Below are positions 6,451 through 54,025 of a DNA stretch of 64,000 bases, one piece after another. How positions within the stretch are numbered: the stretch's first letter is position 1; each line of letters begins with the position of its first letter. The translations under genes and the position numbers were made by a program. The notes beneath the pieces were generated by a model. That model ran no database searches, was not told the origin of the DNA, and was given only the letters and a program-made list of their open reading frames with translations. The stretch comes from an uncultured Acidimicrobiia bacterium. GTDB taxonomy: Bacteria > Actinomycetota > Acidimicrobiia > Spongiisociales > ZC4RG35. Location of the stretch: contig CAWIXU010000004.1 of assembly GCA_963840175.1 (NCBI GenBank), positions 9,288 through 73,287 on the forward strand, given 5' to 3'.

Positions 6451-7802
6451 ATGACGGATTCGGCCTGGCGCCAGCGGTTGTTTCTGGCAATGGTGGCGGT
6501 GCTCCCGCTTCATACCGTTTATCTAAGCGCCTGGATTTCGTGGAAGCCGTTCATGGTCCTCCTGGCCGTCCTGGCCCTGTGGGACCTGGGCGACGGCATT
6601 CGGCTCCGGCAGTGGCCATGGCACAAGCGAATCACGCTCGCGTTCCTTCCCTTGATGGTGGCGGTTGCGATCGGGTTCCCAGGTCCTGAGCTATCGCGAA
6701 CGATTCATCCGGCTCGCCTTAGCGCTTGTCGTCGGGTTCGGGGTGCTGGCAGTTACCGAGCGACGACTGCGCGGCGTCAGGAATGGGAGCGCGCACCCTA
6801 CGGGTCATCTTCTGGTCCGCGGCCGCCATGGCGGTGACCGGCCTGATCTTCTCGGTGCTGCTTCTCGGCCTCGGGGGGGACGAAGGAATCGACTACCTCA
6901 CAGGGTCGCGCGGTTACGACCTTCCTCTCCTCGACAAAATTGGCAAGCCCGCCTATCTCTTGTCGGGTTTCCTCGCGCTTTCCAACTGGCATCAGGACCC
7001 GGGCTATGGAGCCGCTTGGGCGGTCCTCTGGGCGACATTGGCCCTCATCGCTTCCCTCCGCGGCCTCGGAACCAAAAGTCCTCTGATCGACGGAGCGATC
7101 ATCGGTGTTCTTTGGTCCGCAGTGGTGATGGGATTCTCCCGCACCGGGTGGGTGGCGCTGGCCGTGTCGTTGGTTCTCGTGGCCTGGAAGGTGACACGGC
7201 GAGGATTGGTCAAACGGATCGTCGCTGCAACCGTTGCCCTGATCTTGTCGATGGGGCTTCTCTTCGTCGCTGATGTCGAGAATGTCGGGGGGGAGCTGCC
7301 ACTTCAGTTCGCCTTTCGGCTCCGTCAGGGCTGGGACCTCCTGGCATCGATCACCGGGCTGTTCGAGTCATCCGCAGCCTTCGAGGACCAGTTCCAGCCA
7401 TCCGAGCAACGGGCCGACGTCTGGCCGGAGTACTGGCAACTGTTCCTCGACCACCCGGTCACCGGGGTGGGCTTCGGGGTTGGCTGGGAAACCAACTCCA
7501 TCGGCCAGGAACCGCACAACTTGTTTCTCGAGCTCGGAGCAGAAACCGGGATCATCGGTCTCGTCGCTTTTGCGTTGTTGTTGGGCTTGATCATTCGCGC
7601 CGGCAGCGGAGTTCTCGGGGCGGTGGCGCTGACCGTGTCGTTCTTGCCTGCGTTCACCCAGACAGTGCTCTTCGAACCAACCTGGTGGTTCGCCGCCGGC
7701 CTGTTCTTGGCCGCGGGAGGGAAGTTCGAGGATGCCGCGGAGATGCCTGTAGAGTCGTCTGACGAGTCAGGGGTTGTCACCCCAAAACAAGCTGCTGCCT
7801 AG
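6451..7802 (+). CDS. O-antigen ligase/polymerase family (Wzy_C) polytopic membrane protein; one frame disruption.
   Basis: Many transmembrane segments. The motif HNLFLELGAETGIIGLVAFALLL is characteristic of the Wzy_C/O-antigen ligase domain. Confidence 0.65.
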
Positions 7803-11450: not shown

Positions 11451-11565
11451 GCTTACGAAGTATCAAGAACCGTTAACTACCGTCAAGTCCCTTAGAAACC
11501 TTCTTTTCGCGACTTCTGGATGCTTCAGCTTCTCCCCGGAGCGGGGATAGCGCGCGATCGCGTTT

Positions 11566-12126
11566 TCTTCCCCCGGAGGGGGGAGTACCCGAGCGAAGCG
11601 AGGGGGTAGGGGGCGTTTTCTCGAGACCCAGGAGCTCAACCCTCTTCTATTCCCCTCGAAAAGGAACTACTCGTTCAACATGGCCCGACCCCGTCACACC
11701 GACCTCGCCGCGAACGAGAGCACGGGAGCTTCAGAAACGGGATGACCGTCTCAGAGGCGCGGGTGTGGCAGGTGATCCGCGGCGGACAATGCGGCGCCCG
11801 GTTCCGTCGGCAGGTTCCGATCGGACGGTGGATCGTCGACTTCGCCAGTCTGCAAGCCACGACTGGTGCTCGAAATCGATGACGAGTCACACGACTGGCG
11901 TGACGAAACGGAACGCATCGAGTACATCGAAGCGGAGGGTTTTCCGATTTTGCGGCTGACAAACAAATACGTCGCCGAGGACCTCGGCGCCGTTCAGCGA
12001 ACGGTGAGCTTGTGGGTGGCGGAGCTCAAGGCAGGGCGAAGGCCGGAGTAGGGATCGCGTCTGGAGAGAACGCCCCCCTCGTCTGCCTCCTTCGTCGGCA
12101 GACACTCCCCCCTCCGGGGGAGAAAC
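11566..12126 (+). mobile_element. Copy 1 of a ~560 bp element bounded by ~50 bp imperfect G-rich terminal inverted repeats, carrying a disrupted DUF559 ORF. Extra partial inverted-repeat satellites lie at 11529-11548 and 12131-12150.
   Basis: Left end TTCTTCCCCCGGAGGGGGGAGTACCCGAGCGAAGCGAGGGGGTAGGGGGCGTT. Right end AACGCCCCCCTCGTCTGCCTCCTTCGTCGGCAGACACTCCCCCCTCCGGGGGAGAAAC, approximately its reverse complement. About 85% identical to copy 2 at 41559-42118. Confidence 0.7.
11680..12051 (+). pseudogene. DUF559 (Vsr/endonuclease-like) ORF of element copy 1, frame-disrupted in the middle.
   Basis: MTVSEARVWQVIRGGQCGARFRRQVPIGRWIVDFAS then shift, then LEIDDESHDWRDETERIEYIEAEGFPILRLTNKYV. Compare the intact copy at 41675..42043. 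Confidence 0.65.
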
Positions 12127-14826: not shown

Positions 14827-16377
14827 TTGCGCACTCCCAGCGGAATCGAAATCGAGGTTGTCTACGACCAACCCGCCGATCCCGACAAAATCGGCAGTCC
14901 GGGTGAGTATCCGTTCACCCGCGGCCCTCATCCCACGATGTATCGCGGACGGCTCTGGACGATGCGTCAGTACGCCGGCTACGGCACCGCCGACGCCACC
15001 AATCGCCGGTTTCGTGAGCTCCTCGCCGCCGGGCAGACCGGCCTATCGACTGCCTTCGACCTGCCGACGCAGATGGGACTCGACAGCGACCACCCGTTGG
15101 CCGAGGGAGAGGTCGGCAAGGTCGGAGTGGCGATCGACACCCTCGACGACATGCGCCGTCTCTTTCGGGAGATCCCTCTCTCCGAGGTGTCCACCTCGAT
15201 GACGATCAACGCCACGGCTCCGATCCTGCTCCTGCTCTATCAGCTGGTGGCGGAGGAGCAAGGCGTCGATGGCAAGGAAATCCGGGGCACCGTGCAGAAC
15301 GACATCCTCAAGGAGTACGTCGCCCGCGGCACCTACATCTACCCGCCGGGGCCGTCGATGCGGATCGTCACCGACGTCTTCTCGTACGCGGCCAAGGAGC
15401 TCCCGGCCTTCAACCCGATTTCGATCTCCGGCTATCACATCCGCGAAGCCGGCTCCACCGCCGCCCAGGAACTCGCGTTCACGATCGCCCATGGCCTCGC
15501 CTACGTGGATGCCGCCCTGAAAGCCGGCCTCGACATCGACGACTTTGCTCCCCGGCTCTCATTCTTCTGGAACAGCCACAACCTCTTCTTCGAGGAGGTA
15601 GCCAAGTTCCGTGCAGCCCGCCGATTGTGGGCCGACCTGATGCGGAATCGCTTCGGAGCCAAAGACGAGCGGTCGTGGGCGATGCGGTTCCACACCCAGA
15701 CCGCCGGTTCGACTCTGACCGCGCAGCAGACCGGAAACAACGTGGTGCGCACGACCGTCCAGGCCATGGCCGCCATCCTCGGAGGGACGCAATCGCTGCA
15801 CACCAACTCTTTCGACGAGGCCGTTGGACTGCCGACCGACGAATCGGCCCGTCTCGCCTTGCGGACCCAGCAGGTACTCGCCCACGAATCCGGCCTCGCG
15901 GATGACAGTCGATCCGCTGGCCGGCTCCTACTTCGTCGAGGAGCTCACCAACCAGCTCGAAGCCTCGGCCCGCTCACTGCTCGACGCAGATCGAAAGGAT
16001 GGGGGGCGCGGTGGCGGCAATCGAGAGCGGGGTGGACGCAACGTCAGATCGAAGAGGCGGCCTACGAAGAGGCCCGTCGCCAGGAGTCAGGCGAATCGAT
16101 CGTGCTCGGGGTGAACCGATATGTAGTCGGCGATGAGGCTGAGATTCCGGCGTTGAGAATCGACCCTGAGCTGGAGCGCGAGCAAAAGGCGCGCCTCGGC
16201 CAATGGAAGGCAGAGCGCTCGGCAACTGAAGTCGAATCCGCCCTCGACGCCGTCACCATCGCAGCCGGAGACGGGACCAATTTGCTTTATCCCATGAAGG
16301 AAGCGCTTGTCGCCGGTGCAACCTTGGGCGAGTGTTCCGAGGCGATGCGGGCCGTGTTCGGGAGCCACCGACCGTGA
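14827..16377 (+). CDS. Methylmalonyl-CoA mutase-family catalytic (TIM-barrel) subunit without a fused B12-binding domain; one frame disruption near 15900.
   Basis: YPFTRGPHPTMYRGRLWTMRQYAGYGTA, TAFDLPTQMG, HTNSFDEAVGLPT, and a C-terminus ending VFGSHRP. This is the typical MCM/ICM large-subunit N-domain. Confidence 0.75.
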   Translation: MRTPSGIEIEVVYDQPADPDKIGSPGEYPFTRGPHPTMYRGRLWTMRQYAGYGTADATNRRFRELLAAGQTGLSTAFDLPTQMGLDSDHPLAEGEVGKVGVAIDTLDDMRRLFREIPLSEVSTSMTINATAPILLLLYQLVAEEQGVDGKEIRGTVQNDILKEYVARGTYIYPPGPSMRIVTDVFSYAAKELPAFNPISISGYHIREAGSTAAQELAFTIAHGLAYVDAALKAGLDIDDFAPRLSFFWNSHNLFFEEVAKFRAARRLWADLMRNRFGAKDERSWAMRFHTQTAGSTLTAQQTGNNVVRTTVQAMAAILGGTQSLHTNSFDEAVGLPTDESARLALRTQQVLAHESGLADDSRSAGRLLLRRGAHQPARSLGPLTARRRSKGWGARWRQSRAGWTQRQIEEAAYEEARRQESGESIVLGVNRYVVGDEAEIPALRIDPELEREQKARLGQWKAERSATEVESALDAVTIAAGDGTNLLYPMKEALVAGATLGECSEAMRAVFGSHRP

Positions 16378-17730
16378 CCACCGACCCCAAGCGAACCCGC
16401 TTTCTGATTATCGGCGCCGGCCCGGCCGGCACCGCCGCCGCCACCAACGCGGCCGCGCTAGGCGCAAAGGTCACTCTGGTCGAGGACCAGATCGTCGGTG
16501 GCGCGGCCCATCTTTGGGATTGCATTCCCTCCAAGACCATGATCGCCACCGCCGTGCGGATCGACTCGATGCGCAACGCCCCCCGGCTCGGGGTGACCGC
16601 CGCGCCCGGGCAGCGTCGACAGCGCCCAACTAGCCGAGCGAATCTCCATCATCTCCGGCGACATCAACCGCAGCTGGGTCGACCTCCTCAGCAGCCAGGC
16701 GGTCGAGATCATCAACGGGAAGGCCCGGCTGACCGGTCCAATCAGGCGATCGTCGAGGGAGATGACGGCGAACAGCACCGATCGAGCTTTGACGTCTGCC
16801 TGCTCTCGACCGGCTCGGCTCCCGCGTGTCCCGGCCTGGGCAGTCATCGACGGAGAACGAATCCTGACGACTCGCGACGCCTACGACCTCGAGCGAGGTG
16901 CCCGAACAGTTGATCGTGATCGGTTCGGGGGTCACCGGAGTCGAGTTCGTGCACATCTTCGAGTCGCTCGGTTCGGACGTCACCCTGGTGGTCAGCCGTC
17001 AGCAGATCCTTCCCCACCGCGATCCCGAGGTCGCAGCGGTGCTGGAAGAGAACTTCCTCGAAAGCGGGAGTGCGTCTGGTCATCGGCGCTCGCGCGATCG
17101 GGATTGATCGAACCGAAGACGGAGTCAGGGTTCGCTGCGACGACGGGCGGGTGGTCGAAGGCACCCACGCCTTGCTGGCGATCGGCTCGGTCCCGAACAC
17201 CGACTGATCTCGGACTGGGCGAGCTCGGCATCAAGGAGAGCGGCGGTTTCATCCAGGTCGACGAGCATCAGCGGACCTCGGTTCCCCACATCTATGCCGC
17301 AGGAGACTGCACCGGCCAGTTGCTGCTTTCCTCGGTGGCTGCAGTGCAGGGCCGGAAGATCGCCCGTCACGCGATGGGCTTGCCGGTCACACCGATCGAC
17401 TACTCCAAGGTGAGCCAGGCGATTTTCACTGAGCCCGAGATCGCCTCGGTCGGCCTTGAGGAGGCCGAGCTGGCCGCGGGAGGTCGCAAGGTGCGCACAA
17501 CCAAAGTGCCCTTTGCCGCCAACGCTCGGGCGGTGCTGCAAGGAAATCCCCGCGGCTTCGTCAAAGTCATGTCGGATCCCGCCACCGGAGTCGTCCTGGG
17601 CGGGAGCATCGTCGGCCACCGCGCCTCGGAGCTGATCGGGATCATGGCCCTCGCGGTCAAAGCGCGGGTCACGGTCAACGTCCTCGTCGACACCCTGATG
17701 GTGCACCCCTCCTCTCGGAAGCGATCAGCG
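16374..17730 (+). CDS. Flavoprotein disulfide-reductase family (LpdA-like NAD(P)H-quinone reductase, single-Cys CIPSKT type); frame disrupted.
   Basis: FLIIGAGPAGTAAA (FAD fold), WDCIPSKTMIA in place of CVNVGC, a second NAD fold (VIGSGVTGVEF), and a C-terminal dimerisation region. The GTG start overlaps the mutase stop. Confidence 0.6.
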
Positions 17731-17740
17731 AAGCAGCGGA

Positions 17741-17775
17741 GTGAGACGTCAGATCAGACGTCAGACATCAGAATG
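17741..17775 (+). repeat. Arm of the tandem GTCAGACAT/GACGTCAGA repeat family (GTGAGACGTCAGATCAGACGTCAGACATCAGAATG).
   Basis: Direct reading. Inverted relative to the arm at 18620-18656 and matching the left arm of the hairpin at 45427-45459. Confidence 0.8.
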
Positions 17776-17799
17776 TCGTTGTAGCCAACGTTCGTGAAC

Positions 17800-18630
17800 T
17801 GCCGACACACGGTTCCAGAGCGCATCTACGGCGCTCGGAGGTCCGTCGGGGCGAATGGCGAAGACATCTGCCAAGGCGGCGAACCAGTCGCCCGGATTAT
17901 CCAGCGTGGTTGAAGTCGACTCGTGCTCTCGACGTCGGGTGAGGACGCATCCCCGGAGAATGTCGGTCCCGTTCTCGAGTCGAAGCTGGGCGGTGACGAC
18001 TCCGGCAAAGCTCGATTCGGGGGACGTCGACAGGTGCTTGTGCCGTTCGCCGACACGCGTCCATCTCCACCTGGCCTGTCCGAAAGCTCATGCCCGAGAA
18101 GGAGCCGGTGGAATCGTGGGTGAAGTGCCAATCGCCAACCCCATCATCGGTCTCCTCGAAGCGAAAGGTCATTGGGTTCTGGGCATAAGTGCCCGAGATC
18201 ATTGGAAGCGGGTCGTATAGCCCGTCGCCAAGTCCCGCGTCCACCCACCAATCTCCATTCGGGTTCTCAGCCGTTGGGAGGTCATGGGCAACAAGCACCA
18301 GGTGATTCGACAACCACTTGACGTCGGGACCCTCGGGTCCATGTACGCCGCCGATGTGGCGGGTCACGTGATAGCCCAGCGAACCCAACACGAGGGATAA
18401 GGCTCCGTTCATCTGATAGCAGTAGCCGCCGCGGCTGTGGTTGGCGATTCGGTCCAGCGAGGCGGTCGGGTCGATGCTCCAGTTCTCGGACATATGAATC
18501 CACACGGATTCGTAAGGCACCCGTTCGACCCAAGCCCGATGGAGCCGGCTGCAGTGCCTCCGCGGAGGGAGGCTCCACCTCGACCCCGATGCGTCCTAGC
18601 GCCCGAACGACGTCCGGCTCTATCTGATGT
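17800..18630 (-). CDS. nat: Arylamine N-acetyltransferase; at least two frame disruptions.
   Basis: LGRIGVEVEPPSAEAL (N-terminus), VPYESV (IPFENL equivalent), and RGGYCYQMNG with the catalytic Cys, in successive minus-strand frames. Aligns by eye to the Mycobacterium smegmatis NAT N-terminus. Confidence 0.7.
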
Positions 18631-18656
18631 CTGAAATCTGATGTCTGATGTCTCAC
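18620..18656 (-). repeat. Inverted arm of the same repeat family (reverse complement GTGAGACATCAGACATCAGATTTCAGACATCAGATAG); overlaps the 5' end of nat.
   Basis: Direct reading. A possible GTG start for nat lies at the first base of the arm. Confidence 0.8.
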
Positions 18657-20154
18657 TGGTAGCTCACGTATACCGGTACGGGGTCGAGGGCTAGCACCTC
18701 CGCTGGAGTGGCTCCTCCCCGAGGGGTGTCTTCGTCGTAGAAGTTCTTCCAGCCCCAGAGGAAATTGTCGCCGTTTGCGGTTAGCGCGTCCCACGTGTCG
18801 TATTTGGTGCCGAGCGGTCCCTGTCCGTCCATCTGGATTACAGTCGCCAGCTCAGGATGAGTGACGATCTGGTCGCGGTTCTCGATCATGTCGAGACGGA
18901 ACTGATGGAGCAGGAAGAACTTCTGCGGGCAGCTTGTTCTCGCGGACGAGAGCGGCGAGCCACTCGGAAACCTGGTTGACCTCGGCGGCGTCGACCGATC
19001 CGATTTGGCGGAGATGGACCTGGTCGGGTTCCAGCCGCCACTCCGGGTCGAGGGCGAGACCGACGTGAGGCAAGCCGAGAAATTCTTCGTACGGCCTTGG
19101 CCTGGGTGAGGAAATCGGTGCGACCTGGTTGCAGATCGAGGATCACGTACACATCGTTGGCGGCGGCAACCTCGATCCACGGTCGGATGACGTCGAGGCT
19201 CATCTCTTCGGAGTAGTTGTTGTCGTCGCCCGGGAAGGCGGACGCGACGGTGGCGATGATTTCGAAGCCCAAGACGACTGGAGTCCCGTCGGCGTCATAG
19301 CCGGCGGCGATCTCAGCCGCCCTCGCGACGGCTTCCTCGGGACCCTGCTCGCCGAGGACCCCAAGCGCCGACGTGGTCGGGTTGCCATAGAGCGCCACCA
19401 ACCTTCGACCCGGGAACAGCTTGAGCCCGCCACCGGGGAGCTCTGGGGCGTTGACGAGCGCGCCGCTTTGCCATTCGATGAGCTCGGGATCAAAGCCCCC
19501 GGCGACGAACATCTCCTGCGCGGGGGTCGATCTCACCGACTCGAGCAACGCCTGGTCGCCGAGCATGTTGTGTGGATCGGCAAGGACGACCCGGTCACCC
19601 CGTAAGCCGGCGAGAGCGGTCACGGGAGCGACGAGGTCGGACCTGGTGGCGTCCGCCAGCCAGATATTTTCGCCTTCTGTGTCATCGGTTGGGTTTCTGC
19701 CGGCGGCCGCGATGGCTTCCTGTAGAGCGATCGAGTTGCTGGGAATTCCGGCCACCCCACTAGGGAGGGCGCCCCCAACGACCGAGATCGAGTGTGGTGC
19801 GAGGCGGCGTAGCTCATCTACGACCTCGGCGTCAGTCCCTGCGACCAAAAGCGGTGCCTTGATGGAGGCGGCGTAAGCGCCTGCTGCCTCGAGTTCCGGC
19901 GTCGAACCGCTCGCCACCACGACGTGGTCGGCGCACGCCAGGGTGGCCTTGGAGAGGGCGATCGAGAGCTCGACGGGGTCGGTGCTGGTGAAGATCTGCT
20001 GATCGGGTGCGATTCGACATTCCCGGGCCGTGGTTGTGGTTATCGCCTCAGTCGTGGTCGTCGCCGACGGTATTGACGAAGGCGTGCTCGTGCCACCGGC
20101 CGAAGTGCATGAAGCCAACACCAGCCAGACAATCACGGCCGATTTTTGGTTCAA
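18653..20154 (-). CDS. Lipoprotein: lipobox LASC, Thr-rich linker, N-terminal cell-wall-binding-repeat-like region and a C-terminal hydrolase-like domain; one frame disruption near 19100.
   Basis: Reverse complement of 20101-20154 gives (M)NQKSAVIVWLVLASCTSAGG. The TTG start overlaps the accA TGA. The remainder is spread over minus ORFs 18886..20343 and 18653..19180. Confidence 0.5.
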
Positions 20155-21909
20155 CGGATGACGGCCAGCACGGCTCCCAGCGAGACGGTGTCGCCGGCTT
20201 GCACCCGGAGGTCGACGACCTCGCCGGCGCTCGGGGAGCGCACCTCGTTCTCCATCTTCATCGCCTCGAGCACGCAGATCGGCTGGTTCGGCTTCGACCT
20301 TGTCGCCTGCCTTCACATGCACTTTGACGATCGTGCCCTGCATCGGCGCGCGTGACGACTCCGTCGTTGCGCACCCGACGCGGCGGGCCGGTCGAGCTTC
20401 GGCCGAGCTCTCCGCGTCATCCCGGGTCCAGTCGCGGGACCAGCGTCAGGTGACCAGTAGGTGACCGCAAACCGCCGTCCCACCGATCTCGACGGTCATG
20501 TCGCGGCGGGCGAGCTCCTCGTCCTCGGGCAGCGTTGGCTGCGACGAGCGGCGTGGCGTCGGGGAACTTGACCTGATCCTCGAGCCAGCGGGTGTAGTGA
20601 CGGCCTTCGAGAAAGTCGGGATGATCGAGCACAATGAGATGCGCAGGGATGGTTGTCGCCACCCCGGTGATCAGAAATTCCTCGAGGGCGCGACGGCCGC
20701 GTCGGATGGCTGGTCGCGATCGCTACCCCACACGACCAGCTTGGCCATCAGGTTGTCGTAGTACTGGCTCACCCTGGTGGTCGGGCTGGATCCAACCATC
20801 GACGCGCACGCCCGGCCCGGCCGGTTCGCGGTAGTCGGCGACCTGACCTGGCGTCGGCAGAAAGCCGCGCAGCGGATCCTCGGCGTTGATCCGGAATTCG
20901 ATGGCGTGGCCCCGCGGGCGTGACCGAGTCGAAGTCGAGCTTCTCGCCCTGCGGCGATCCGCAGCTGCCACTCCACGAGGTCGAGACCGGTGACCATCTC
21001 GGTGACCGTGTGTTCGACCTGGAGGCGGGTGTTCATCTCGAGGAAGTAGAACTCGCCCGATTCGGGATCGAAGAGAAACTCGACGGTGCCGGCGTTGACG
21101 TATCCGCACGAGCGCCCGGCGGCCAGGGCGGCTTCGCCCAAGAGCGTTGCGCTGTTCGGCGGTCATACCCGGGGACGGGGTTTCTTCGATCAGCTTCTGG
21201 TGTCGTCGTTGCACGGTGCAGTCGCGCTCGCCGAGGAAGACACCGTGGCCGGCTGGGTCGAAGAGGATCTGCGCTTCGACGTGACGCGGGCGCGGCAGGT
21301 ACTTCTCGACGTAGACCTCGGGGTTTCCGAAGTAGGCGTCGGCCTCGCGCCTGGCCCCGTCGAACGCCGCCACCGATCTCGCTCGCGCTGTTGACCACGC
21401 GCATTCCTTTGCCGCCGCCGCCGTGGGCGGCCTTGATCGCGATCGGATAGCCGAACTCTTCGGCGAGGGCGGCGACCGTCTCCACCGATTCGGCCGGTTC
21501 GGAGGTCCCTGGAACCGTCGGCAATCGCCGCCTCGGCGGCATGTCGCCGCGAGGTGATCTTGTCGCCCATCGCCTCGATGGCCGCGGGAGGAGGGCCGAC
21601 CCAGGTGATGCCGGCCCTGGTGACCGCCTCGGCGAACCCGGCGTTCTCGGCGAGAAAGCCGTAGCCGGGATGGATCGCATCGGCCCGAGCGGCCGCGGCG
21701 ACCTGGAGGATCTTTTGGGCGTTCAGATAGGACTCGGCCGCGGGCGCCGGTCCCACGTTCCAGGACTCGTCGGCCAACTGCACGTGCAGCGAGTCGCGAT
21801 CGAGGTCCGAATAGATGGCAATCGTGTGGATGCCCATCTCCTGGGCGGTGCGGATGACCCGCACCGCGATCTCTCCCCGGTTGGCGATGAGGAGGCGGGA
21901 AATGGTCAC
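20152..21909 (-). CDS. accA: Acyl-CoA carboxylase alpha subunit (biotin carboxylase plus C-terminal biotinyl domain); multiple frame disruptions.
   Basis: [17 protein letters not shown]-grasp [29 protein letters not shown], and the biotinyl motif [13 protein letters not shown], which is recovered only after shifting frame inside ORF 18886..20343. Confidence 0.8.
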
Positions 21910-41558: not shown

Positions 41559-42118
41559 TCTCTCCCCCGGAGGGGGGAGTACCGAAGCGAAGCGGAGGGG
41601 AGGGGGGCGTTATCTCTTAACGACGACGCTCAACCCTCTTCTATCCGGCCCGAAAAGGAACTAGTCGTGAGTGGATGCCAAGACCTGGTCACACCAACCT
41701 CGCCGCGACGAGAGCACGCGACCTTCGAAAGGAAATGACCGTCTCTGAGGCCCGGGTGTGGCAGGTGCTGAAAGGCAGGCAATGCGGGGCCCGGTTTCGC
41801 CGCCAGGTCCCGATCGGTTGTTGGATCGTGGACTTCGCCAGCCTGCGGCCTCGTCTTGTGCTCGAAATTGATGACCAATCACATGACTGGCGCGACGAAA
41901 CGGAGCGCATCGAGTACATCGAGGCGAGGGGCTTTCCGATTCTGCGCCTGACCAATGAATACGTAGCGAAGGATCTAGGTGCTGTTCAGCGAACGATCAG
42001 CTACTGGGTCGCAGACCTCAAAGCAGGACGACGACCGGAATAGGTTTCGAGCTAGAGAAAACGCCCCCCTCGTCTGCCTCCTTCGTCGGCAGCCACTCCC
42101 CCCTCCGGGGGGAGAAAC
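41559..42118 (+). mobile_element. Copy 2 of the inverted-repeat-bounded DUF559 element (intact cargo ORF).
   Basis: Left end TCTCTCCCCCGGAGGGGGGAGTACCGAAGCGAAGCGGAGGGGAGGGGGGCGTT. Right end AACGCCCCCCTCGTCTGCCTCCTTCGTCGGCAGCCACTCCCCCCTCCGGGGGGAGAAAC. Collinear with copy 1. Confidence 0.75.
41675..42043 (+). CDS. DUF559 domain protein (Vsr/restriction-endonuclease-like fold).
   Basis: EARVWQVLKGRQCGARFRRQVPIGCWIVDFASLRPRLVLEIDDQSHDW...RIEYIEARGFPILRLTNEYV is a textbook DUF559 pattern. Confidence 0.8.
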   Translation: MPRPGHTNLAATRARDLRKEMTVSEARVWQVLKGRQCGARFRRQVPIGCWIVDFASLRPRLVLEIDDQSHDWRDETERIEYIEARGFPILRLTNEYVAKDLGAVQRTISYWVADLKAGRRPE

Positions 42119-44228: not shown

Positions 44229-44765
44229 ATGGAAGTTCGTGTTCATACGCGTAACACCAGCATCGACGATCGGGTCAGGGAACTAGCCGCCGAAAAGCTC
44301 GGCCACGCCGCGCGGGTGTTCGAAAGCCAGGTGGCCGACATGGATGTCGAGTTCTCCGAGGAGCACAACCCCCGCCTGGCAGCCGAGCGCTACCGCCTCG
44401 AGGTCACCACGGCGGCAGCTGGCAAGGTGATCCGGGTGGTTTCAACGGCGGCCTCGGCCGAAACGGCCGTTGATCAGGCCGTGGACCGCCTCAACCTCCA
44501 ACTACGGCGTCTTAAAGGGAAATTGATCGAAAAACACCGGAAACACGCCGTCCATGACGGTTTGGTCGAGCCTCCCACAGAACCCACGAACGAGATTGTT
44601 CGTATCAAGCAATTCGTTATGAAGCCGATGACCGTAGAGGAAGCAGTGCTGCAGATGGAGTTGCTTGGTCATGACTTTTTCTTCTTTCACAACGACGGCA
44701 CCCAGCGCCAGAGCGTGCTGTATCGCCGTCGGGACGGTCAATTGGGTTTGATCGAATCAGCGTGA
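44229..44765 (+). CDS. hpf: Ribosome hibernation-promoting factor, long form. Intact.
   Basis: MEVRVHTRNTSIDDRVRELAAEKL and C-terminal domain FFFFHNDGTQRQSVLYRRRDGQLGLIE. Confidence 0.85.
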   Translation: MEVRVHTRNTSIDDRVRELAAEKLGHAARVFESQVADMDVEFSEEHNPRLAAERYRLEVTTAAAGKVIRVVSTAASAETAVDQAVDRLNLQLRRLKGKLIEKHRKHAVHDGLVEPPTEPTNEIVRIKQFVMKPMTVEEAVLQMELLGHDFFFFHNDGTQRQSVLYRRRDGQLGLIESA

Positions 44766-45418
44766 AGAATCCGACTGTTCTTGTTGTCGACGACGCGCCT
44801 ATTTTTCAGGCGGGTTTGGCGGCTGCCCTCAAAGTGGAGGGCTTCGACGTCGTGGCGATTGCCTCCGATGCCCTCACTGCAATTGCTGAAGCCCGCCGTC
44901 ACCGCCCGGCTCTGGTTGTTCTGGACGTGTTGATGCCGGGGATCTCGGGTCTCGATGTCGTTGACAAGATCACCGACGCCTCGCCGGGAACCAAGGTTGT
45001 GCTGCTGACGTCGAGCGACTCCGAGGAGGACTTGCTCACGGCGATCAAGGCAGGAGCTTCCGGCTACATCATCAAAGACACGCCATTCCCCAAGCTGGTG
45101 GCGGCGATGAATGAAGTCGTCAAAGGGGGAGCCGTAGTGTCGCCCAAGCTTGCGGCCCGGCTCTTTGATGTGGTGGCCCATCTGCTGCGCAATCGGGATC
45201 TCAACGCCACCCGCCGGCCCTCTCTCACCGGTCGCGAGGTGGAGATCCTGCAATGGATCGCCGATGGTCGAACCTCGCGCGAGATAGGCGAACAGCTCTA
45301 CATCTCCGAGAACACCGTCAAGAACCACGTCCGCAACATCTTGGACAAGCTGGGGATGCAGTCCCGGCACGAAGCGGTCCGCTACGCCGAACACGCGGGA
45401 CTTCTGAATCGCCGATAG
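44762..45418 (+). CDS. NarL/LuxR-family response regulator (REC + HTH). Intact, with no adjacent kinase.
   Basis: VLVVDDAPIF...LVVLDVLMPG (phospho-acceptor Asp region) and LTGREVEILQWIADGRTSREIGEQLYISENTVKNHVRNIL. Confidence 0.85.
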   Translation: MKNPTVLVVDDAPIFQAGLAAALKVEGFDVVAIASDALTAIAEARRHRPALVVLDVLMPGISGLDVVDKITDASPGTKVVLLTSSDSEEDLLTAIKAGASGYIIKDTPFPKLVAAMNEVVKGGAVVSPKLAARLFDVVAHLLRNRDLNATRRPSLTGREVEILQWIADGRTSREIGEQLYISENTVKNHVRNILDKLGMQSRHEAVRYAEHAGLLNRR

Positions 45419-45426
45419 GCGATTCA

Positions 45427-45506
45427 GAGACGTCAGACATCAGACGTCAGACATCAGACTGGGATTCCATCTGAAGTCTGAAATCTGATGTCTGATGTCT
45501 TCTCAC
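45427..45506. repeat. Imperfect palindrome of tandem GTCAGACAT-type units (33 bp arms, 16 bp loop) between the response regulator and secA. Candidate bidirectional terminator/REP-like element.
   Basis: GAGACGTCAGACATCAGACGTCAGACATCAGAC-tgggattccatctgaa-GTCTGAAATCTGATGTCTGATGTCTTCTCAC. The arms match those at 17741-17775 and 18620-18656. Confidence 0.8.
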
Positions 45507-53620: not shown

Positions 53621-53673
53621 CCGACGCAGCTTCTCTCCCCGACCAACTTCGGCTCGGCCGTTCTTCGTAATCG

Positions 53674-54025
53674 TGGAGGCGGCGGGAATCGGACCCGCGT
53701 CCCATGAGTCGTCAGCGCCGGCATCTCCGAGCGCAGCCGTCGGCGAGCTTGTCGGCAAGAAGGACCCCAACGGCGGGCTTCCCACTCGCTTATCCGGAGT
53801 TGATCTTTGCCCTCCGGTCCCGGATCCCGGAGGACGCATCCTGCATTGCGACGCCCGATTCCGGCGAGGCAGGCGCCCACCGGGCGGACGGGCTGCGTTA
53901 TTTAGGCAGCCAGTGCGAAGTTGTCTTCGGCACTTGTGTTTGTTTCCGGCTCTTTAACGAGGTTCCGGAGACCTCGGCTCGCTTCCGACGCATCAACACT
54001 CATGGTCGAAACCATTTCGCCCCCA
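53674..54025 (-). ncRNA. ssrA: tmRNA (ssrA). Predicted tag peptide AEDNFALAA.
   Basis: Minus-strand 5' end GGGGGCGAAATGGTTTCGACCATGAG. Tag reading frame GCC GAA GAC AAC TTC GCA CTG GCT GCC TAA. The 3' end is tRNA-like: GGACGCGGGTCCGATTCCCGCCGCCTCCA. Confidence 0.85.

Follow-up and report, generated by a model that had tools for sequence, protein, structure and literature searches.

In a 64,000-nucleotide stretch of contig CAWIXU010000004.1 from an uncultured Acidimicrobiia bacterium (here called the window), the gene for an arylamine N-acetyltransferase (nat; NAT for the protein) is flanked by two inverted arms of tandem heptads, located at the ends of two convergent genes: an lpdA-like flavoprotein gene and a conserved gene without Pfam domain, here named gene X. 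Together these arms probably represent a single palindromic 3'-end element of ~80 bp whose halves were moved apart, the nat-bearing segment having come to lie in its loop, a reading to which we assign a probability of about 60%. On this reading they would be a relic that in part serves as coding sequence, and not the terminal repeats of a mobile unit. Loci from other genomes are designated by L numbers, and the main features of the window are collected in Table 1.

Structure of the two arms around nat

Both arms reported in the preliminary description of this DNA were found exactly, in sequence as well as in position. They are composed of the heptad AGAC(A/G)TC in tandem. A search for CAGACRTCAGAC with one mismatch allowed gave 11 matches in the window, all of them within three sets of arms (17741-17775, 18620-18656 and 45427-45506), against 0.87 expected and a maximum of 3 in the shuffled window. 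Tandem Repeats Finder detected period-7 arrays in the window only at 17744-17772, 18623-18653, 45428-45459 and 45470-45500, with 4.4-4.6 copies each, and these arrays form inverted pairs of at least three tandem 7-nt units. As an inverted repeat, the arms around nat are 90% complementary over 20 nt and 94% over 17 nt; the distance between them is 844 nt for the arms as first quoted and 850-864 nt for the repeats as called. Folding of the arms, which had been proposed as a check, gave -55.1 kcal/mol (z = -7.8) when they were joined through an artificial tetraloop, and the joined arms of the related locus L002 gave ~-50 kcal/mol (z about -7).

The arms overlap the ends of the three genes. The left arm, earlier said to abut the 3' end of the lpdA-like gene, in fact contains its stop codon (TGA, 17742-17744) and, on the other strand, the stop codon of nat (complement of 17761-17763). 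The right arm contains the TGA of gene X, which forms its base, together with the overlapping start codon of nat, and codes for nat residues 1-12 (VRHQTSDFRHQI). The GTG proposed as a candidate start was located at the complement of 18654-18656, with nat on the minus strand, and it overlaps the gene X stop (complement of 18653-18655) as GTGA. Both flanking genes terminate as TGA-GAC... in their own sense, and nat takes up all the space between them. None of the three frames of an arm is closed in the AGAC sense, whereas in the complementary sense each of them has a TGA, so that an open reading frame (ORF) between the arms continues into one of them and is terminated within the other. The protein P0003, a NAT 76% identical, has an arm-like N-terminus (MSDFRDQISDQ).

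An intact palindrome and the probable origin of the arms

The locus at 45427-45506 had been described as the same two arms lying adjacent around a 16-bp loop; it is a true hairpin, but the spacer between the extended arms is 11 nt. Its 31-nt arms are 87% complementary and fold at -51.7 kcal/mol (z = -7.8). It is the strongest short-range inverted repeat of the window and also the best match of the family covariance model (82 bits). The left nat arm is the same as the 5' arm of this hairpin apart from a 2-nt gap and 1 mismatch, while the right nat arm matches its 3' arm in 30/31 bases, including an irregular GAAATC unit. The two types of half differ from each other, the 5' type alternating GTC and ATC units and the 3' type having ATC, ATC and TTC. 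The nat locus has one half of each type in the correct order, as would be expected from the splitting of one element, and not two like arrays. The arms probably do not flank nat through the chance meeting of two separate elements. The earlier alternative of a repetitive extragenic palindromic (REP)/terminator-like family that flanks nat by chance is kept as far as the 3'-end family is concerned, and abandoned with respect to chance.

The sequence 3' of the stem at 45501 is CTTCTCACCCCC, which has no run of T, and no such run follows the hairpins of the related loci L211 and L213. A canonical intrinsic terminator was rejected at these three sites, where the stems are strong but no U-tract is present.

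Relatives that carry nat at the same site

In L002, a short-read assembly with a NAT 85% identical, the layout is as in the window. Its nat is an unbroken 297-aa ORF that begins at an ATG in one arm (MRHQTSDFRHQIEP...) and ends at a TGA in the other, the ATG overlapping the gene X stop as ATGA. In L001 (NAT 93% identical; nat copy readable only from an internal start, in an error-prone assembly) the gene X-side arm is kept, with an in-frame ATG, and the lpdA-side arm has been mostly replaced by a ~170-bp element resembling a MITE (miniature inverted-repeat transposable element; L001:10863-11035), with 20-nt G/C-rich terminal inverted repeats (GTTTCTCCCCCCGGAGGGGG). Termini of this type were also found twice in the window (11563-11585 and 42096-42118), indicating a separate dispersed small element. 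In L122 (NAT 70% and lpdA 81% identical) the gene X-nat-lpdA order and the GTGA overlap are conserved and the arms are vestigial, the gene X-side arm being unrecognisable and the other reduced to two AGATC-type units. The GTGA or ATGA overlap suggests that nat would be translationally coupled to, and co-transcribed with, the cluster of carboxylase genes and gene X. Homologues of NAT that are 60-68% identical were found in unrelated contexts without heptads, and for this reason the location of nat between lpdA and gene X is considered derived.

Synonymous divergence (dS) between L002 and L001 was 0.67 for nat, ~3x that of its flanks (0.24 for lpdA and 0.11 for the 3' end of gene X). The excess begins just within the arms (L002:164-1005 compared with L001 and the window). 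Alleles of the segment enclosed by the arms may have been exchanged, or this segment may have a history that differs locally from that of its flanks.

Relatives without nat at the lpdA/gene X junction

Relatives without nat were retrieved with the lpdA-like protein as query. Relatives that lack nat there and carry an intact hairpin at its site, the comparison recommended in the preliminary description, do exist: in L211/L212 and L213/L214 (lpdA 79-80% identical), lpdA and gene X are directly convergent and separated by a spacer of 86-106 bp, which is an intact heptad hairpin with both stop codons in the base of the stem (TAG-ACGCCAGACGC...GGCGTCTCA in L213). The units are related to those of the window yet different (AGACGCC in L213, GAGACGT in L211). 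These orthologous hairpins fold at -52 and -68 kcal/mol, and a covariance model built from the other family members detected them at E = 2.7e-6 and 0.017. The suggestion that nat was inserted in the loop of such a hairpin gains its support from these sites, where the hairpin is whole between the same convergent genes, and from the match of the nat arms to the two halves of the 45427 element.

Other contents were found at the same junction. In L215/L216 and L217 (lpdA 76-78% identical) the two stop codons are 3 nt apart, without a hairpin (L215:6362-6366). L204-L209 (lpdA 93%) contain an alpha/beta-hydrolase gene and an amino-acid permease gene (L204:6354-8500), and L210 (lpdA 89%) an unknown ORF of 204 aa within ~1.3 kb of DNA lower in GC (L210:2596-3910), in both cases without heptads. 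The junction between lpdA and gene X is therefore a hot spot of gene turnover with differing accessory genes. A metagenome scan with gene X listed 80 loci, all of them distant homologues (at most 70% identical) from other contexts, in which neither nat nor lpdA nor heptads occur, and they gave no information on polarity. Identity matrices of lpdA, gene X, methylmalonyl-CoA mutase and acyl-CoA carboxylase (ACC) separated three roughly equidistant clades, namely (((window/L001/L002, L204), L210), L122), (L211, L213) and (L215, L217).

Proposed history of the locus

In the simplest history, the ancestral state would have been a palindrome of tandem AGAC(A/G)TC heptads between the convergent lpdA-like gene and gene X, with the stop codons at the base of the stem, possibly acting as a REP-like bidirectional terminator or 3'-untranslated region (3'-UTR) hairpin without U-tract. 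A ~0.85-kb segment carrying nat would then have entered the loop in the ancestor of the window's clade, and the inserted ORF may have been absorbed seamlessly thanks to one arm open in three frames and the other with TGA in three frames. From then on nat would start at the GTG or ATG that lies on the gene X stop, run for ~12 codons through the arm and end at the TGA of the other arm. Later changes would include decay of the arms (L122), partial loss of one of them (L001) and replacement of the content (L204 and L210).

Tests for gene function and mobility

Homologues of nat were up to 93% identical, and 120/120 of those listed carry PF00797. The L002 orthologue matched the Pfam profile Acetyltransf_2 at E = 2.6e-35 (122.8 bits, cut-off 22.8) over profile positions 3-234 of 240. 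In an alignment of 18 NAT sequences the residues C79, H118 and D139 were invariant and the cysteine of the GGYC motif was present; we take these residues to be the catalytic triad, by analogy with known NATs. The ratio of nonsynonymous to synonymous divergence (dN/dS) was 0.13-0.17 in comparisons involving L122 and L001, indicating purifying selection. Because of these ratios and the Pfam match, nat is predicted to be a functional gene. Its interpretation as a pseudogene was dismissed, given that all the window genes examined are frameshifted and that the short-read L002 orthologue is intact. The frameshifts have no counterpart in the relatives and affect every window gene examined (e.g. 16332-17784, 14827-16377 and 17761-18656), consistent with errors of a long-read (nanopore-type) metagenome-assembled genome (MAG) rather than gene decay; since they match such errors, the ORF calls of the window are unreliable.

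The G+C content at third codon positions (GC3) was 0.75 for nat and 0.76-0.77 for its neighbours. The compositional comparison proposed earlier showed no contrast, and recent horizontal transfer of nat was rejected for want of compositional support.

No integrase, transposase or HUH gene was found within +/-10 kb (20 genes) around the L001 orthologue. A second arm-nat-arm copy was not detected in protein contexts, in the related loci (591 kb), or in plasmids, phages and viral contigs, and the plasmid, phage and viral-contig searches gave no match at all. No target-site duplication was visible, nor were there direct repeats outside the arms in the window or L002. An integron cassette with an attC site was rejected, since the halves are located on opposite sides of nat and no integrase is encoded among those 20 genes, as was a MITE or insertion sequence (IS) carrying nat as cargo, in the absence of a target-site duplication and of further whole-unit copies. 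The other possibility raised in the preliminary description, a mobile cassette bounded by terminal inverted repeats, is not supported: homologues elsewhere lack the arms, no recombinase is nearby, plasmids, phages and viral contigs contain no match, and GC3 is even. The nested nat is unusual and probably a passive relic.

The heptad palindrome family

The GTDB pattern scan (596 Gb) was based on a 17-mer with two R positions, for which we estimate that chance matches number in the thousands. The matches listed were mostly single matches in unrelated taxa (e.g. Chryseobacterium and Chitinophagaceae) and did not include the source genome of the window, and only paired inverted arrays were used. 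Among the matches listed, AGAC(A/G)TC hairpins were present in several other Acidimicrobiia MAGs and in Gemmatimonadota MAGs (L003, L006, L040, L083 and L113), and the array usually starts exactly on a stop codon, which gives TAGAC or TGAGAC. Of the 44 arrays from Acidimicrobiia and Gemmatimonadota loci, again among the matches listed, 17 start only a few bases from the end of a long ORF of the same sense. In L010, a marine Acidimicrobiia MAG, the stop codon of pafA is joined to a hairpin (6640-6717), and composite arrays in inverted orientation are located on both sides of pafBC, core genes that were not inserted there. No insertion is therefore needed for inverted arrays to arise in successive spacers.

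Over 591 kb of related loci, the covariance model scored only the window hairpin, the two orthologous hairpins and the nat arms. Further spacers in the same relatives, from the start of gene X to the end of ACC, contain arrays or hairpins of other units (L211:7434-7459, L213:8117-8190), namely GAGGCGT and GTGGGTG/CCCACC. Period 7 is thus shared, and the unit may differ between sites of one genome. Searches against Rfam gave no match at gathering thresholds except for the transfer-messenger RNA (tmRNA) gene, and permissive thresholds yielded only generic miRNA-hairpin noise far below the cut-offs. A literature search found no description of palindromes in Acidimicrobiia, nor of a stop-codon-fused heptad palindrome family. 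The element is an unreported variant of REP-like and heptamer-array palindromes. By analogy, the intact hairpin may contribute to 3'-UTR stabilisation of mRNA, to control of read-through or to translation termination.

PF05635 genes between inverted heptad arms

A second class of gene was found between inverted heptad arms. In L213 (9979-10850) and L217 (9877-10465), a gene for the PF05635 protein of 23S rRNA intervening sequences (IVS) is located between the carboxyltransferase and biotin-carboxylase genes. Its arms in L213 have the unit GACGGAA, are 25 nt long, 92% complementary and 599 nt apart, and those in L217 have the unit GAGACGT, are 24 nt long, 96% complementary and 498 nt apart. A ~280-bp complex GACGGAA array was also observed upstream in L213. 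Small accessory genes between inverted heptad arms occur in more than one case in this lineage.

A bolder proposal, which we consider improbable, is that heptad palindromes in these Acidimicrobiia are recurrent sites or vehicles of gene capture. ORFs in the loop (nat, PF05635) would be plugged into the upstream operon by arms that are open in three frames on one side and stop in three frames on the other, and either co-variation or gene conversion would preserve complementarity over 0.5-0.9 kb, the arms perhaps serving as a stalk for processing by RNase III. If true, this would represent a chromosomal, integron-independent nesting of genes inside hairpins.

Genes around the nat locus

The best protein matches carry the names Acidimicrobiia or Ilumatobacteraceae, and a 198-aa fragment identical to the window's nat was found on a 73.7-kb NCBI/ENA contig. 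The L001 orthologue of the lpdA-like gene has Pyr_redox_2 and Pyr_redox_dim domains. Orthologues of gene X nearly always have the C-terminus V(S/T)(Y/F)Q* and are located downstream of acyl-CoA carboxylase genes on many Actinobacteria-like metagenome contigs. The nat homologue of L123 (8001-13233), a more distant Acidimicrobiia MAG, adjoins methylmalonyl-CoA mutase genes, and in the window, too, a single gene separates nat from an MM_CoA_mutase gene, which may be a coincidence or a functional link. The tmRNA gene of the window is at 53671-54024 on the minus strand (Rfam RF00023, 157.7 bits).

Table 1. Coordinates of the nat locus and of the intact heptad palindrome in the window
Feature	Coordinates	Strand	Remarks
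lpdA-like gene, NAD(P)H-quinone/dihydrolipoamide dehydrogenase family flavoprotein	16400..17744 (start approximate)	+	Frameshifted; convergent with nat and gene X
lpdA-side arm (5-prime-type half)	17741..17775	+	GTGAGACGTCAGATCAGACGTCAGACATCAGAATG; period-7 array, inverted repeat with 18620-18656
nat, arylamine N-acetyltransferase ORF	17761..18656	-	Three-frame translation; two frameshifts in the assembly; covers the former loop and parts of both arms
gene X-side arm (3-prime-type half)	18620..18656	-	Minus-strand reading is GTGAGACATCAGACATCAGATTTCAGACATCAGATAG
gene X, conserved ~500-aa protein without Pfam domain	18653..20155 (start approximate)	-	Ends VSYQ*; last gene of the carboxylase cluster
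Intact heptad palindrome	45427..45506	+	Follows the stop of a response-regulator/LuxR-type gene (44762-45418); precedes the secA start (45529)

Alternative explanations

Several observations weigh against a single palindrome split by the arrival of nat. The polarity is drawn from three roughly equidistant clades (with nat, with the hairpin only and with no spacer), which makes the proposed ancestral state no more than probable. In the first clade L204 and L210, which lack nat, branch between the window and L122, implying two replacements or two independent gains of nat. The arms are nearly lost in L122, and their retention over an equal time in the window's clade calls for selection, gene conversion or a slower local rate. 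The same locus goes part of the way towards the result that, according to the preliminary description, would count against its reading, namely nat at the same position without the repeats, since in L122 only vestiges of them accompany nat. A terminator role of the hairpin is only putative, since it has no U-tract. The lpdA-like gene and gene X might also each have gained their own stop-anchored AGACRTC array, so that nat would lie between halves that were never one hairpin. This is unlikely, even though a long same-sense ORF often stops a few bases from the start of an array of this family, solitary arrays with no partner close by are present in L034, L060 and L020, and the inverted arrays of L010 flank pafBC with no insertion involved: the nat arms are of different types that match the 5' and 3' halves of the intact element and share its pattern of mismatches, full hairpins also occur where only one gene ends, as upstream of secA, and the orthologous sites of L211-L214 carry a single complete hairpin.

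Two further explanations give the palindrome or its arms an active role. The palindrome could be a recombination or fragile site that takes up ORFs, through cleavage of the hairpin tip and end joining or through a hairpin-specific recombinase, or else arm-nat-arm could be a MITE-like element with cargo. The similar anatomy of the PF05635 genes of L213 and L217 with differing units, the four or more different contents that the lpdA/gene X junction is seen to have, the raised dS of nat, as would follow from an exchange of the segment that the arms enclose, and the presence of the hairpin in two phyla all point in this direction. Such capture or mobility is quite unlikely, however, in view of the lack of integrase, transposase and HUH genes around the L001 locus, of a second arm-nat-arm copy in the collections searched and of a visible target-site duplication, and of the equal GC3 of nat and its neighbours. 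Besides, L001 is missing one arm, replaced by the MITE-like element, and L122 both, and nat is still under purifying selection, while by our estimate a random insertion in the 86-106-bp spacer would hit the loop ~30-40% of the time. The arms could, on the other hand, pair over ~850 nt in the gene X-nat transcript as a ~30-bp double-stranded RNA stalk, with RNase III cleavage or occlusion of the nat start setting its expression. Excision by RNase III at stems of this kind is the classical fate of IVS ORFs of the PF05635 family, the arms of both the window and L002 are strongly complementary, the start codon of nat lies inside an arm, and the arms of the PF05635 genes in L213 and L217 differ between the genomes yet remain complementary. 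A functional stem of this kind is nevertheless the least probable of these explanations: nat retains its low dN/dS in L001, which is without the lpdA-side arm and could be read from an internal start only, and in L122, which is without both arms, and complementarity is expected even without selection, given that the arms share their units. A single palindrome split by nat remains our preferred reading.

Comparison with known repeat systems

The element resembles the REP elements and bacterial interspersed mosaic elements (BIMEs) of Enterobacteria and Pseudomonas, which are imperfect intergenic palindromes at 3' ends, often between convergent genes, with dispersed copies that share a consensus and form stable hairpins without U-tract. 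REP elements are thought to be 3'-UTR stabilisers or modulators of termination (bioRxiv 10.64898/2026.03.23.713779), and they are known to receive insertions, for example of the IS110-type ISPpu10 in a conserved intergenic repeat (bioRxiv 10.64898/2026.03.19.712850). The family described here likewise consists of stable, short and imperfect palindromes in an extragenic 3' position. It differs from classic REPs in that the arms are tandem 7-nt repeats, the element begins on a stop codon, its ~80 bp exceed their length, and the inserted item is an ordinary metabolic gene and not an IS. Its copy density is low in the DNA covered, with one intact and one split copy in the 64-kb window and, across 591 kb of related loci, none but the orthologous copies; REPs typically number more than 100 per genome. 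A REP-associated (RAYT, IS200/IS605-like) transposase gene was not detected in the 20-kb L001 neighbourhood, the sole region inspected.

Intergenic heptamer arrays are known from Xanthomonas, with 70-75 inverted pairs of GGGAATC arrays per genome (PMC4692102), from cyanobacteria, and from Beggiatoaceae, with TAACTGA repeats (PMC4679880). In common with the present family they have tandem 7-nt units dispersed in intergenic regions and varying between close relatives, and those of Xanthomonas often occur as inverted pairs able to form stem-loops. In contrast to them, AGAC(A/G)TC is not G-quadruplex forming, the arrays are fused to stop codons, one pair is split by a whole gene, and the host taxa are Acidimicrobiia and Gemmatimonadota MAGs.

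Three other systems share part of the anatomy. The 23S rRNA IVS with a PF05635 ORF also has an ORF in the loop of a long-range inverted-repeat stem, but the nat locus is outside the rRNA genes and its cargo is nat. Integron cassettes are similar in that a promoterless single ORF adjoins an imperfect palindrome and depends on upstream-driven expression; attC, however, is a complete palindrome on one side of the cassette, whereas here the halves are on opposite sides, without intI, a cassette array or attC core sites. Bidirectional intrinsic terminators are strong hairpins centred between convergent stops, as in L211-L214, but the present stem is made of tandem repeats, extends over the stop codons and is not bordered by a U-tract at either end.

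The nat locus represents a clean comparative case in which a gene splits an intergenic palindrome, and it illustrates a route by which an incoming ORF may be wired into a host operon through a repeat, with its start on the upstream stop codon and with an N-terminus and a stop codon encoded by the arms. If ORFs in the loop are not recurrent, the locus would be a well-resolved relic at a gene-turnover hot spot; if they are recurrent, as nat and the IVS-protein genes may indicate, hairpins of this kind would be preferred sites of gene gain in high-GC uncultured bacteria.

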